From assembly GCA_029762535.1 (NCBI GenBank), contig JARVGK010000009.1, positions 1-64,000 on the forward strand: a DNA stretch of 64,000 bases, written 5' to 3'. The stretch is from Thermoplasmatota archaeon. Lineage in GTDB: Archaea; Thermoplasmatota; Penumbrarchaeia; Penumbrarchaeales; Penumbrarchaeaceae. The notes under the pieces are model-generated. The model saw only the letters and a list, made by a program, of their open reading frames with translations. It had not been told where the DNA came from and did no database searches. Each line of letters starts with the position of its first letter. The first letter of the stretch is position 1. Below are positions 1 to 23,739 of this stretch, piece after piece. Made by a program: the position numbers and the translations under genes.

Positions 1-260
1 GGACCTGAATCCAGAGCCTCTATCTTGTTTCGCTCCTGGAGTTCCAGGGACCACGTATAGAATCCCGGGATATCCCTGCTCCTTCCCCGCCTGTAGTAGC
101 TGATCTCCCCACGCACCCGCAAACGATGGAGGATGGATTTGGCCGTGGTCCTCTTGATCTCGAGGATCCTTGCGATCTCCCACGGGCTCCAGGGTTCTCC
201 TTCCGAACGGTGGAGGAGCTCCCGGATCCTATCGGTTATAGAGGGCCCTTTGGATAACAT
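1..260 (-). CDS. winged-helix DNA-binding protein (3' part outside window)
   Basis: Translated by hand from ATG at 260: MLSKGPSITDRIRELLHRSEGEPWSPWEIARILEIKRTTAKSILHRLRVRGEI..., an HTH pattern; the frame is open to the window edge and is not in the ORF track. Confidence 0.65.
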   Translation of the reverse strand, partial: MLSKGPSITDRIRELLHRSEGEPWSPWEIARILEIKRTTAKSILHRLRVRGEISYYRRGRSRDIPGFYTWSLELQERNKIEALDSG

Positions 261-362
261 GGGATCCCTCTATTTTCGTAGGCGATTCGCTGTAACTAAG
301 ATGTCCTTCTGATAGCTCAATGCCTCGAAATCTTCAGGGGCCAGACCTTCTCTGGCGTTTAT

Positions 363-634
363 ATCCCAGTGCCCCCACTTCTCTTTTTTATTTAAGTCCA
401 GGGGGCACGGATTTGAACCCTTGGGTTCCCGAAGAACGAGGTATTGCCGAGTTCAAGGGATGGGGAAAATCATGAAATGATTTTTCGAACATCAAATCCC
501 AGTGCCCCCACTTCTCTTTTTTATTTAAGTCCAGGGGGCACGGATTTGAACCCTTGGGTTCCCGAAGAACGAGGTATTGCCGAGTTCAAGGGATGGGGAA
601 AATCATGAAATGATTTTTCGAACATCAAATCCCA
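363..634. repeat. 133-bp exact tandem duplication (2 copies plus 6 bp) containing tRNA T-arm-like inverted ends
   Basis: Units start at 363, 496 and 629 (atccca...). Each contains GGATTTGAACCC...TCAAATCCC and a GAAAATCAT-GAA-ATGATTTTT hairpin. Confidence 0.9.
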
Positions 635-892
635 ATACCCGCACCCATTTTCTCTCGTCAAATGAAAATGCTACGAAAATCGGTGCTCGAAGATAATTCT
701 ATACGAAAAATGAGAATTATTCATTGTTTTAGCCTCATTTTCCTGGACCTTTGGACTTGGTTCATCGTTGTTCTTTGGACAGTCCAAAGGTCCCAGCGCC
801 CCCACCTATCCTCTATCGTTCTGATCAACGGGCGCTTACGTCCAACAAGGATTATATACAACACTCCACCCTTAACCCTTCAACAGGGGGCT

Positions 893-2086
893 ATGACCTT
901 GAGACAGGACCGGGAAGGATCTCGTTCGAGAGATGGAAAGATCAGGGGGTCTGATAGAAGAAGGGAGAGTTACGACAGGTCCTTCGAAAGGAAGGGGCGC
1001 CGGGATCGAGAGCGACCCGGCGATGTTGCTCCAGGGAACAAGGGCATCCCGAAGGCCTTCATAGTCCCCATAGCGGTGATGATCGTCCTCATCCTACTCA
1101 TCGCCTCGGTCCTTCTGCTGATCAACTCAGGGTCATCTTTGGATTCCGCCCTGGTGGGCAATATCGAGAGAAGGAGCATGGATGGGGACCTGTACCAGGA
1201 CAATTATCCCGAGACCCTCTACATCCCGTTCTATGCCTCCTCCTCCGGTTTCGGAAAGCCGAAAGGGACGCTGACCCTCGAGATACGATATTCAGTGGAT
1301 CAGACGCTTCTCCACACCGAAAAGGTGGAGATCGACGGTGAGATCGGACACACTTACGTCCACATGAACCGATTCGTCAAGGGAAACGGGGATTACACCT
1401 TCACGGCCAGGGTAGGGGGTTCCTCCAATTCCGTGACCTTCACCATATATGAGGTCGTCGAAAAGCTCTCGGTCGTTTGGGAGCATGGCATCAACGACAC
1501 CCCCTTCTCCACCCATTCTTACAGTGTAGATTATACCGTGACCCCATTGAACAAGGACGGGCAATCACTCTTGAGGGCACCAATGCCTTACGACCTGAAG
1601 GGGGCCCTCTCCAAGCCTCAAGGGGATGCCGACATTATAGAAAGGGACTGGCCACAGACGGGCTCGTATATCATTACGGGTGGGACAGAGCATACTATCA
1701 AGGGCAACTACGACCTGGACCTCCAATGGACCAACCTTATGTGCCGGGCGGACTCTCCATACTACAAGGTCTCACTCTCCGAGGGAAGCTCAATACCGGT
1801 TGATTCGCCTCCGTATGCCGATGCCGGAGAGGACCAGGAGGTCGCACTAACCGGTGGCGCGGCCACAGTGAGCTTCGACGGGTCCGGATCCGAGGATGAC
1901 TGGTCCATCGTCGAGTATCGTTGGGACTTCGGTGACGGACAGAACTTCACATCCGCGACACCATATGCGTCACACACCTACAATGCAACGGGTGATTACT
2001 TCGTGACCTTGGTCGTCGTGGACGATTCTGGCCAGACATCCACATCACGATGGGGCGGCGACATGATGGTAACCGTCATCGAGTGA
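893..2086 (+). CDS. membrane-anchored PKD domain protein
   Basis: Charged N-terminus, one TM helix, C-terminal PKD motif (PYADAGEDQ...FDGSGS...YRWDFGDG...HTY...VTLVVVD). ATG at 893 follows a GGGGG RBS-like run and is preferred over the ORF start at 662. Confidence 0.8.
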   Translation: MTLRQDREGSRSRDGKIRGSDRRRESYDRSFERKGRRDRERPGDVAPGNKGIPKAFIVPIAVMIVLILLIASVLLLINSGSSLDSALVGNIERRSMDGDLYQDNYPETLYIPFYASSSGFGKPKGTLTLEIRYSVDQTLLHTEKVEIDGEIGHTYVHMNRFVKGNGDYTFTARVGGSSNSVTFTIYEVVEKLSVVWEHGINDTPFSTHSYSVDYTVTPLNKDGQSLLRAPMPYDLKGALSKPQGDADIIERDWPQTGSYIITGGTEHTIKGNYDLDLQWTNLMCRADSPYYKVSLSEGSSIPVDSPPYADAGEDQEVALTGGAATVSFDGSGSEDDWSIVEYRWDFGDGQNFTSATPYASHTYNATGDYFVTLVVVDDSGQTSTSRWGGDMMVTVIE

Positions 2087-3305
2087 TCCTACCCCCAAAG
2101 GGTTCGAGGATCAAGCATTGTTCCCCTTTGAACAGGTGCACCTTCTTATCCCCGTTCAAGCCCGACTCCAGTTCAAGCCTGCGCTCCCAATATTCGCTCG
2201 GATCGACGTTGTAGCGCAGAGTGACCTTTCCTGCTCCAGCATCCTTCAACTCCCTTGATAGGGCATCCTCCGAACATATCGAAACCACCTTATACGCCAT
2301 CCCCAAGAAACCTGCTTCTATCGGTTCACGGGAAAAAAGCAGGCACCTCCTCCCGTCAAGACATAGCGCCTTGATATCCATCCCGGTCTCTTCGAGAGCA
2401 TCCCTTAATAGACCGGACCTGACCAGCGCGGGGTCCGCTTCGTATGCATATTCACCTGAAACGATCTTCTCTTCCATTAAAGGCAATTGCCGCGAAACGC
2501 CTGTTATGGAATACCCTCCAGGAAGGACCACAGCCGATACGGCGCCCTTCATCAGGTCTCCCGTGTAGAGGTTGAGGCGATTAAGCCTCCGATCGAGAGA
2601 GAGATATTCCGCCTCGCATGGGAATTCCACCTGGTCGAGGGACATGTACGGGGGCACTTCGAAGCAGAACCCGGGAGATATGTCCGAATAAACCGATAGG
2701 ATCCTCCGGGGATCGGGGACTATATCATCAAGGGACCTCTCCAGAGCGCCTTGCGGCCTGGCAGGGTCCGAGAACACGTATGAGCCGGGTTCGACCTTTC
2801 CGGCAATGCCAGGATCCATGCAGTCCCCGCGAACGAGTGAGACGTTATCCAGAGAGAGCTCCTCGATGTTCAGGGACGCGATGAAGGCGTTAAGAGGGTC
2901 GATCTCCACGGCAAGAACCCTATCGCAGTGGCGGGCGAGGGATAGCACCTGGCCCCCTTGACCGCATGTGACATCGGCAGCGGAAGGCCCGGACAATCTG
3001 CTTGCACAATGCTCTGCGGCTACCTCGGGAGTACCCCACCTAAGGCCTTCGGCCGTGAAGAACAAGCGCTTCCCATCAGAGTATTTGCCTCCGGACCGCT
3101 TCCTTGTCTTGGCAATATCGAGGAGCACCCTGGATGCAGGGTCGTCAGGGGTCCGCGGTCCGATCCTCTCCAATACATTGCGGTCCGTGATCCCTGATCG
3201 CTTCCAGCCCTCTATCCTGGAAACTGCGGCCCTCACACCCTCATATCCCATCTCCATAAGTGGATCCAGGGCGGGACCCGATAAGTGATCTTCGCCATTC
3301 ATCAT
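2076..3305 (-). CDS. class I SAM-dependent methyltransferase with THUMP-like C-terminus
   Basis: ADVTCGQGG SAM motif, VFSDPARP motif, YEADPALVRSGLL. Confidence 0.8.
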   Translation of the reverse strand: MMNGEDHLSGPALDPLMEMGYEGVRAAVSRIEGWKRSGITDRNVLERIGPRTPDDPASRVLLDIAKTRKRSGGKYSDGKRLFFTAEGLRWGTPEVAAEHCASRLSGPSAADVTCGQGGQVLSLARHCDRVLAVEIDPLNAFIASLNIEELSLDNVSLVRGDCMDPGIAGKVEPGSYVFSDPARPQGALERSLDDIVPDPRRILSVYSDISPGFCFEVPPYMSLDQVEFPCEAEYLSLDRRLNRLNLYTGDLMKGAVSAVVLPGGYSITGVSRQLPLMEEKIVSGEYAYEADPALVRSGLLRDALEETGMDIKALCLDGRRCLLFSREPIEAGFLGMAYKVVSICSEDALSRELKDAGAGKVTLRYNVDPSEYWERRLELESGLNGDKKVHLFKGEQCLILEPFGGRITR

Positions 3306-3397
3306 CGGTATAACCAAGGTAAAGTTTTTAAAGGATGTGGATTTAATGGGCCTCTCCCTCGATATCGAGGGATTTCGACGATGTCGGAGGAGTCAGA

Positions 3398-23171: not shown

Positions 23172-23302
23172 TTGAATATCGTCCCTTGATCAGGGGATGA
23201 GGCTAAAGGCCTAATAAACCCTTTCCACAAGCAAGAATACCAGGATCCCGATCTGTTGGGGGGGGATCACCCCTGAACCCGGGATGATGAGTAGATGTTG
23301 AG

Positions 23303-23680
23303 TGGGTTCAAATCCCTTTCGTCAATTAAGGCTACAACAAAGAGGGATTGGTGCGGATGCCGGGACCTTTGGATCGTCCTCTCATTGACGCTAATTCAGA
23401 TCCAAAGGGCCAGGAAAATGCCTATCAGGCATTTTTCGTATCAAATCATATTCAAGCGCTCTTTTTCGTAACGTTATGGATCGACGAAAGGAAAAGAGTG
23501 TGAATGCCGGGATTTGACTGCGGAAAATCAGAGATTTTCCTCGTCCCGGATGCCACATATCGTCAAATCCACTAGCGTGACATCCGGGAACCCCGGGATG
23601 CTGATAAGATGATTATCTGGGTTCAAATCCCTTTCGTCAATTAAGGCTACAACAAAGAGGGATTGGTGCGGATGCCGGGA
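23303..23680. repeat. 63-bp exact direct repeat (23303-23365 / 23618-23680) including the 3' 17 nt of tRNA-Gly, enclosing hairpin-rich DNA
   Basis: TGGGTTCAAATCCCTTTCG...TGGTGCGGATGCCGGGA occurs twice, 315 bp apart. Confidence 0.9.
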
Positions 23681-23739
23681 TTTGAACCCGGGCAAGTAGC
23701 TTGGGAAGCTACGGTCCTACCGAGCTAGACCACATCCGC
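23664..23739 (-). tRNA. tRNA-Gly (CCC), CCA encoded, no intron
   Basis: GCGGATGTGGTCTAGCTCGGTAGGACCGTAGCTTCCCAAGCTACTTGCCCGGGTTCAAATCCCGGCATCCGCACCA folds as a cloverleaf with anticodon CCC. Confidence 0.96.

Follow-up and report, generated by a model that had tools for sequence, protein, structure and literature searches.

The contig that carries the window (the whole 64,000-nt stretch of DNA analysed here) holds, 362 nt from its first base, a pair of identical 133-bp repeats that are rich in hairpins and end in what looks like the 3' end of a tRNA, with no tRNA gene beside them. The question raised by this locus is what these units are, from which gene their tails were copied, and how they came to lie where they do. 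Working from the sequence alone, an initial annotation had taken them for members of a structured repeat family, either REP/MITE-like elements possibly moved in trans by an HUH/Y1 enzyme or tRNA-like non-coding RNAs. Its observation was confirmed in part, and its interpretation is partly supported.

The exact tandem duplication of 133 bp is present at 363–495 and 496–628, a copy number that rests on one assembly, the independent Logan assembly of the locus breaking within the repeat. All motifs quoted in the initial annotation were found in the sequence, and the tail that it called tRNA-like, CCCAGTGCCCCCAC, is the true 3' end of a tRNA-Trp, with an identity of 22 nt (C53:7507–7705). The extent proposed for the array, 363–645, was borne out as far as it goes, but its stop at 645 was wrong: positions 363–806 form an array of three cassettes, of types A, A, and C, every one of which terminates in a copied tRNA-Trp 3' end. 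Cassettes are here gene-less units of 110–165 bp that stand in tandem directly behind tRNA genes. The array opens on the plus strand with a first tail, T0 (363–378), a 16-nt copy of the tRNA-Trp 3' end (ATCCCAGTGCCCCCAC) that is identical to C53:7690–7705 and whose identity with the tRNA starts inside the T-loop. Cassette A1 (379–511, plus strand; 92.2 bits under covariance model R1) follows, with, all on the plus strand, a T-rich spacer (379–400), an antisense arm complementary to the acceptor 3' strand and the T-arm (401–420), a hairpin H1 with a CTTG turn (415–428), a variable hairpin H2 (about 429–460), a hairpin H3 of the form GGAAAAT...ATTTTTC (464–486), and a sense copy of the tRNA from T-loop to 3' end (491–511). 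Cassette A2 (512–645, plus strand; 88.2 bits) is the same as A1 up to 628 and ends in a diverged tail, CCCAATACCCGCACC, with three changes relative to the Trp tail. This tail and its flank also occur in an independent Logan contig, and no source tRNA for it was found within the host genome. Cassette C (646–806, plus strand) consists of a small hairpin, an inverted H3-like hairpin (703–748), a hairpin TGGACCTTTGGACT...AGTCCAAAGGT, and the tail CCCAGCGCCCCCACC at 792–806. Its architecture is common to 10 other C-type units of the host genome, all of which close with the tail of their own tRNA. Since the array reaches 806, the following PKD-domain gene should start near 893 and not at 662, and an independent gene call agrees. 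False open reading frames arise from the cassettes in the window (the frames 320–475 and 444–608, and the PKD gene start at 662).

Why does no tRNA adjoin this array? Positions 1–362 lie outside the cassette family and are probably the distal end of an integrase-bearing element; they contain a weak winged-helix reading frame on the minus strand (3–260), whose HTH matches fall under the Pfam cut-offs. The first base of the window is also the first base of its contig, C102. On contig C53, the order is tRNA-Arg, L41e, and tRNA-Trp, then, 12 nt further on, the C-terminus of a tyrosine integrase, which continues to the contig end. A full-length homologous integrase follows tRNA-Trp in one relative (G021). 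In another (G005), an A-type cassette and then another cassette stand behind tRNA-Trp, and this array shares its contig and orientation with the ortholog of the gene at 2076–3317 of the window. The simplest reading is that an integrase element entered tRNA-Trp in the host and displaced the older array downstream, so that the array became detached from its tRNA. The identity block of this element also begins in the T-loop, as do the tails of A- and B-type cassettes. We infer that T0, at which the array originally began, is the attR-like junction of the integrated element, and that C53 and C102, which stand as separate contigs in the assembly, join in this way.

The second locus retains its tRNA. 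The only tRNA called in the window, by both ARAGORN and Rfam (RF00005, 64.2 bits), is a tRNA-Gly(CCC) at 23664–23739 on the minus strand, which anchors an array of the pattern B-C-B'. Cassette B (23496–23640, minus strand; 50.8 bits under R1, E 4e-13) ends in TCAAATCCCGGCATTCACAC and has the plan of A plus a linker of about 25 nt that separates the antisense T-arm from the sense stub; its core is 80% identical to that of a B unit behind tRNA-Leu(TAA). It is followed by a cassette C (23351–23495, minus strand), closed by an exact copy of the tRNA-Gly tail, CCCGGCATCCGCACCA, and, at the end of the array, by a truncated B (23262–23350, minus strand) that has only the spacer, the antisense T-arm, and the sense stub. 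An exact 63-nt repeat links positions 23303–23365 and 23618–23680, and the B-C-B' pattern is also seen behind tRNA-Glu and tRNA-Leu. The initial annotation had placed 23505–23631 on the minus strand in the same family as the repeats of the first locus, rightly so given the score of the B unit. It had also placed there 23366–23447 on the plus strand. The shared GGAAAAT...ATTTTTC hairpin with its G-T pair is indeed present there, but not the same architecture on that strand: the segment is a C-type cassette read on the wrong strand, with its tRNA tail on the minus strand at 23351–23367. The plus-strand ATCAAATC is not kept in the other 10 C copies, and C units carry the hairpin in inverted orientation with respect to the tail. 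This hairpin is also present at dozens of other sites in the genome, including hairpin arrays unlinked to tRNAs.

Eight A-type units of the host genome align well and give a single consensus fold. In these units, the order is an antisense T-arm (GGATTYGAACC), a CTTG turn, the 5' half of a sense T-arm (GGGTTC), the hairpin H2, whose sequence varies, the hairpin H3 (GGAAAAT-loop-ATTTTYC), and a copy that comprises the sense T-loop, T-stem, and acceptor 3' strand as far as the discriminator base. Both halves of the split sense T-arm find their partner in the antisense strand, so that the cargo is looped out of the T-loop and the whole closes as a four-way junction. The fold of the 133-bp unit is accordingly a closed multi-hairpin, as had been suggested (−50.2 kcal/mol and z −4.7 as RNA, z −4.1 as DNA). 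H1 carries a CUUG-type tetraloop, and runs of T5–T6 are found in the spacer and in H3, upstream of the tail. The antisense T-arm is universal among units and agrees with its own tRNA in the A57 or G57 variant. In only about one-third of the units does the antisense arm also include the acceptor complement (runs of at least 5 nt in 14 of 42, compared with 12% of mismatched controls). That the arm derives from the tRNA 3' end is indicated by tRNA-Ala, in which the 5' arm of the cassette reads GGACCGG, the complement of the 3' strand, and does not copy the tRNA's own 5' strand, GGGCCGG, which forms the G3-U70 pair. An origin of the antisense arm from tRNA-primed cDNA was rejected, as the arm is without a CCA complement and no reverse transcriptase gene was found in the genome. 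The tails of A and B units start at T55/C56 in the T-loop and those of C-type units at position 61, and the direct repeats that bound the units vary in length between 12 and 30 nt.

A reading of these units as tRNA genes is not supported. ARAGORN and Rfam RF00005 gave no tRNA in 363–811, nor in 300–900 even at E ≤ 5, and Rfam searches of the window and of bacterial look-alikes, at gathering and at relaxed scores, returned tRNA and rRNA matches only. Of the initial suggestion of a tRNA-like non-coding RNA, the tRNA gene itself thus falls away, but a mimic of the acceptor and T-arm survives as one of the alternatives weighed below. The cargo was also considered as a BHB intron, and this was discarded on inspection of the folds, whose junction is without two 3-nt bulges 4 bp apart.

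There are clear signs that the fold is under selection. The initial annotation had described a structure conserved through compensatory stems, and the test of this was made on a 51-row model alignment with 32 pairs, 500 shuffles, and slid-partner controls. Paired cells amount to 92.8%, compared with 75.5% in column shuffles; fitting the alignment to the model inflates this fraction but cannot create the many alternative Watson-Crick pair types of H2. Changes on both sides are present in 23 of the 32 pairs; values this high did not occur in any of the 500 shuffles, and the pairing signal falls sharply when partner columns are slid. T-loop position 57 covaries perfectly across the two arms (CG in 26 rows, UA in 21). 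Read on the tRNA-sense strand, G-U pairs outnumber A-C pairs by 66 to 35, a weak hint that this strand is the active one, which does not separate RNA from single-stranded DNA.

The family extends well beyond the window. Model R1, built from the eight A units of the host genome, yields 21 matches in that genome at the census cut-off of E < 1e-5, and it detects the family in 22 of the 25 other genomes scanned from the order (20 of the 23 other genomes of the family and both genomes of a sister family). Eleven genomes from other families of the class gave none. In the loci fetched from 24 genomes, copies are concentrated at tRNA 3' ends: 43 of 48 forward-strand copies stand directly behind a tRNA on the same strand, with a gap of 14–53 nt between the tRNA and the first unit, and in 38 of these 43 the tail matches the tRNA at 18 or more of the 19–22 positions compared. 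The five exceptions are the two displaced copies of the window, two copies at contig ends (L074 and L008), and one in G006, where the fetched stretch shows no tRNA upstream. Among the 45 tRNAs of the host, 17 are followed, no more than 1.5 kb downstream, by an exact 12-mer copy of their own tail. For 20 of the 45, at least 9 nt of the 3' end recur in inverse orientation in the next 110 nt, where about 0.25 such cases would arise by chance. Some tRNAs have the inverse copy alone and no cassette, such as tRNA-Ala(TGC) on contig C14, which looks like an empty paralog of the filled site at tRNA-Ala(GGC) on C58. As a whole, the archaeal family is found behind about 40% of tRNAs and comprises several types of cassettes (A, B, C, and others).

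A comparable design is known from E. coli. The tRNA-linked repeats (TLRs) of this bacterium have 18–19 nt in common with the tRNA or rRNA gene upstream, at its 3' end, and have no accepted function. For three of them, transcription that reads past a first terminator yields RNAs that undergo processing and bind Hfq and CsrA (PMC8144298). They include the 178-bp repeats of the tyrT-tyrV operon, called RtT or rttR (Egan and Landy 1978, Rudd 1999, both as cited in PMC8144298). In a preprint on the E. coli mobilome, raised coverage of rttR was put down to RNA/DNA hybrids and not to circles. Direct reading of the tyrT-tyrV sequence of K-12 shows that each RtT repeat consists of an antisense T-arm with the first acceptor bases (GGGGAAGGAT..GAACCTTC), a short turn, the 5' half of a sense T-arm (AAGGTTCGA), cargo hairpins, ATCC, and then the tail. 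Its fold is closed by a helix between the antisense arm and the tail, like that of the archaeal units. Both kinds of repeats immediately follow a stable-RNA gene, share its orientation, and stand in tandem, and both copy the last 18–22 nt of this gene at the end of the unit. The split T-arm plan and the closed fold that they share make the archaeal units the same kind of object as RtT. By contrast, there is no sequence similarity in the cargo, and the RtT family of Rfam (RF00391) gave no match in the window at the gathering score, nor on 300–900 at E ≤ 5. The archaeal units are thus a variant of the tRNA-linked-repeat design and not sequence members of the Rfam family. The two also differ in that expression has been shown for E. 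coli only, whereas occupation of about 40% of tRNAs by several types is archaeal.

Other likenesses are with mobile elements. The boundary of the tails, from the T-loop to the tRNA 3' end, is that of the att cores of T-loop-class integrases (PMC1762012, PMC4383910). In phage Ms6, the att core covers the same segment, and editing this core retargets integration (PMC1762012). The sites of T-loop-class integrases, their non-autonomous derivatives (CIMEs), and Islander islands (PMC4383910) resemble the cassettes in having a direct repeat that starts within the T-loop and reaches the tRNA 3' end, a regenerated tRNA, a displaced fragment at the far end, and tandem stacking. Unlike them, the cassettes are gene-less, measure 110–165 bp, and possess an antisense T-arm and a split sense T-arm; in addition, one core serves many tRNAs, and no integrase family co-occurs with the units.

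A further parallel is offered by recombination sites that act as folded single strands, such as the attC sites of integrons and the attP(+) site of CTX-phi, which mimics dif. As in these sites, structure is conserved over sequence in the cassettes, and imperfectly complementary arms re-form a duplex. This duplex mimics the chromosomal target, as in CTX-phi, and cassettes form tandem arrays, as in integrons. In contrast to attC, no IntI-type or other dedicated recombinase was identified. By analogy with these systems, one might speculate that the cassettes recombine as single strands.

Clear signs of movement between tRNA genes were found among the archaeal cassettes. Cores that are 76–83% identical stand behind tRNAs of different amino acids, with entirely different tails. 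Such cores are shared within the host genome between tRNA-Trp and tRNA-Ala, tRNA-Glu and tRNA-Leu, and tRNA-Gly and tRNA-Leu, and between genomes for the pairs Arg/Thr, Arg/Gly, and Ala/Pro. The cassettes of tRNA-Trp in G005 and in the host are alike in their plan and in almost nothing else. The number of tandem units varies among congeners, with four copies in G008 and two in G020. Similar cores with different tails, together with these differences in copy number, indicate that cores move among tRNA loci and that their arms are then re-matched to the new neighbor. Correction of imperfect inverted repeats templated by a hairpin is a known process, and it would re-match the antisense arm; we infer that re-matching occurs in this way.

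Our best guess is therefore that the cassettes are non-autonomous units that recombine at the part of the tRNA that extends from the T-loop to the 3' end. The reading that we favor, with a probability of roughly 0.45, is that of non-autonomous DNA units that accumulate at tRNA 3' ends and are probably also read through and processed. Such units would enter, or duplicate at, this segment, which is the att core used by T-loop-class tyrosine integrases, and every event would yield an intact tRNA and a displaced copy of its tail. Arrays would grow by accretion and by unequal crossing-over. Cores would switch tRNAs, with arms re-matched most simply through hairpin-templated correction, and the enzyme would be supplied from outside the cassette and not encoded by it. 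When single-stranded, the unit would fold into the four-way junction, in which the antisense strand re-forms the duplex of the T-arm, and in some cases of the acceptor. Cassettes would probably be transcribed together with the tRNA and processed at the tail copy, by analogy with RtT and RrB of E. coli. In the window, the array would later have been severed from tRNA-Trp by the integrase element entering at the same site. Several points count against this reading: the distribution of the cassettes is not followed by that of any recombinase, a 20-mer hallmark of the design, described below, is absent from IMG/VR viral contigs, about two-thirds of the units are without the acceptor complement, and the T-runs of the spacer and of H3 could stop archaeal transcription before the tail, which bears on the read-through part. 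Moreover, a simple reciprocal crossover in the T-loop with the cassette of another tRNA gives a chimeric, dead tRNA, so that moves between tRNAs need a step that duplicates the target or copies the unit.

The search for an enzyme bears on the same reading. Tyrosine recombinases (PF00589) number 0–2 in most cassette-carrying genomes, without enrichment. The integrase type of C53 and G021 was found in 3 of the 24 genomes of family f1 that were searched, the host (G000) included, and cassettes in 21 of the 24; with so sporadic a distribution among relatives, the tRNA-Trp integrase family was rejected as the mover. A Xer-like recombinase on C25 has no repeats nearby and was set aside, as was the only insertion-sequence transposase found, an IS110 in single copy on C22 whose ends are unrelated to the cassettes. 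No parent insertion sequence for the cassettes was found in the host genome. Casposon mini-elements moved by a casposase were discarded as well, the sole Cas1 lying in a normal CRISPR-Cas locus with an array of 36-nt repeats.

The alternative that survives best, although we consider it the less likely, is that the cassettes are functional RNAs: small structured molecules made by read-through from the tRNA promoter and cut out by the enzymes that process tRNA 3' and 5' ends. As the closing helix copies the acceptor and T-arm end of the tRNA, these enzymes would excise the unit, as for RtT and RrA/B/F, and the DNA would have spread only through local duplication and rare ectopic recombination. 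The conserved fold with its strong covariation, the larger number of G-U than of A-C pairs when the tRNA-sense strand is read (66 to 35), and the CUUG-type tetraloop of H1 all fit such an RNA. So does the design shared with E. coli RtT, related E. coli repeats being transcribed, processed, and bound by proteins (PMC8144298), and bacterial look-alikes duplicate the terminator too, in the layout tRNA, T1, unit, T2. However, processing alone does not demand that the tail match the neighboring tRNA, the acceptor helix is re-formed in only about one-third of the units, and the T5–T6 runs in the spacer and in H3 precede the tail. The cargo hairpins are wholly different among lineages, and the H3-like module is inverted in C units, which fits a DNA palindrome better than an RNA.

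That the cassettes are instead passive scars, that is, attR fragments and leftovers of successive integrations of integrase elements followed by decay, with no property that depends on the fold, appears improbable. Such an element does reside at tRNA-Trp, its att block starts in the T-loop like the tails of A and B units, and the distal tails are diverged versions of tRNA ends. Nevertheless, a common fold of about 120 nt, with compensatory changes, is seen in 22 of the order's 25 genomes, and debris of att sites should not contain an antisense T-arm; cores are common to different tRNAs, and integrases are rare in these genomes.

It is equally doubtful that the exact 133-bp duplication is an artefact of assembly, one unit or another number being the true state. 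The two copies are 100% identical, the Logan assembly terminates inside the unit, and contig C102 begins 362 nt upstream of the repeat. Against this, other tRNAs and other genomes often have tandem pairs and quadruplets whose copies differ slightly, and the second copy of the window has its own diverged tail, independently confirmed. The cassettes do have a practical cost, in assemblies broken at tRNA loci and in spurious open reading frames.

The mechanism first put forward, in which REP/MITE-like units are moved in trans by an HUH/Y1 transposase (RAYT or IS200/IS605) acting on single-stranded hairpins, is not supported and appears very improbable: the units are non-coding and rich in hairpins, with a conserved single-strand structure, but neither a Y1 transposase (PF01797, with matches obtained in control genomes) nor TnpB (PF07282) was found in this 93%-complete genome, the units are confined to tRNA 3' ends and are not dispersed extragenic palindromes, and their duplicated tail of 20–22 nt contrasts with the insertion of IS200/IS605 elements without duplication, direct repeats of 13–22 nt bounding the units. 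The likeness to REP/BIME elements and MITEs is that of short, repeated, non-coding, hairpin-forming sequences, and the cassettes differ from them by the absence of RAYT/Y1, by their location at tRNA ends, and by arms matched to the neighboring gene. Inverted arms are present but are copied from the target, and the length of the direct repeats varies.

Beyond this archaeal family, an exact 20-mer, GGATTYGAACCCTTGGGTTC, turned up in 40 stretches of metagenome sequence and in 24 species representatives. Of the latter, 19 have behind it 50–150 nt of hairpins and then an exact copy of 13–22 nt of upstream sequence that begins in or next to a T-loop and corresponds to the tail of the tRNA just upstream. 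This tRNA was called by ARAGORN in 11 of the 19, and a T-arm is visible in the other sequences. The cargo of these copies splits the sense T-arm exactly at the step from position 57 to position 58. Among their hosts are archaea of the Methanobacteriota, Woesearchaeota, Aenigmatarchaeota, and Thermoplasmata, and bacteria of the Clostridia, Verrucomicrobiota, Alphaproteobacteria, Parcubacteria, and Bacteroidota. No Rfam family covers these look-alikes, and the 20-mer was not found in IMG/VR viral contigs. A bolder proposal, which we hold to be unlikely, would unite the archaeal A, B, and C cassettes, E. coli RtT, and the look-alikes (from Clostridia, Verrucomicrobiota, Alphaproteobacteria, Patescibacteria, and DPANN archaea) in one cross-domain class of protein-less mobile elements whose single-stranded form would locate the insertion site through base pairing. 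The antisense T-arm and the sense tail would base-pair to different strands of the tRNA gene at its 3' end, a near-universal host enzyme would insert the element, and rewriting the arms would reprogram its target.

The E. coli tRNA-linked repeats have, to our knowledge, been without explanation since 1978. Three results alter the way into this problem. A whole archaeal order carries an RtT-like design behind about 40% of its tRNA genes, and the antisense T-arm, the split sense T-arm, and the tail copy can be recognized in E. coli RtT itself. An exact 20-nt hallmark of this design is present behind tRNAs in at least five bacterial phyla and in several archaeal lineages. A local curiosity thus becomes a general and testable phenomenon, which can be studied experimentally in E. 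coli. The cassettes would represent site-specific mini mobile elements of a new kind under one mechanism, and widespread passenger RNAs of tRNA operons under the other.

Open frames run through the cassettes, the gene-less folded units that carry a copy of the tRNA 3' end, at window 320-475, 444-608 and 662-892; they are repeat artefacts. Automated ORF calling could add about 77 codons of cassette C to the PKD-domain gene. The tRNA-Trp gene holds an inserted tyrosine-integrase element, parts of which lie at 7706-8098 of contig C53 (locus L015) and probably at window 1-362, the contig break falling within it. At the same tRNA-Trp site, the relative G021 encodes a full-length homologous integrase of 333 aa. 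In another genome compared, G028, an apparent second intron-containing tRNA lies on the opposite strand directly 3' of tRNA-Trp (contig C211, locus L006), with a 3' end that reads almost as the tRNA-Trp tail region in reverse complement.

Folded units of other sizes and settings are also present in the genome under study. Behind tRNA-Ala(CGC), the A cassette is followed by a row of fold-back units that, at about 50-95 nt, are much smaller than the cassettes (C21:19340-19800, locus L011). Every unit opens with GGACTGGT, which is complementary to the acceptor 3' strand, and closes with CCCGACCAGTCCA; the row is broken by an assembly gap (Ns). Hairpins of the GGAAAATC...GATTTTTC type form arrays without adjoining tRNAs on C61, where the period is 56 nt, and at C25:47700-48800 (L016:1200-2400), C31:5500-5700, C4:83800-83876, C6:78650 and C16:326. 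Their hairpin module is the same as that of H3, the second cargo hairpin of the A and B cassettes. The genome also carries a CRISPR-Cas locus (C5:61684-66800; L037:7000-12800), with an array of 36-nt repeats (CTCTCCATGGCC...GAAGC) and a 555-aa ORF that contains Cas1 and is possibly a fusion.

In bacteria, a near-identical cassette of about 150 nt is found behind tRNA-Cys, past its terminator, in gut MAGs placed in different phyla (Clostridia, Paludibacteraceae and Fimenecus; loci L122, L125, L134, L138-L140 and L143). The motifs GAGCG-N-AGCGAG and GAAGGGTGAGG are common to the cargos of bacterial cassettes and to the tRNA-linked repeat RtT of E. coli. These findings suggest a homologous bacterial cassette family that would be broader than RtT as defined in Rfam (RF00391).
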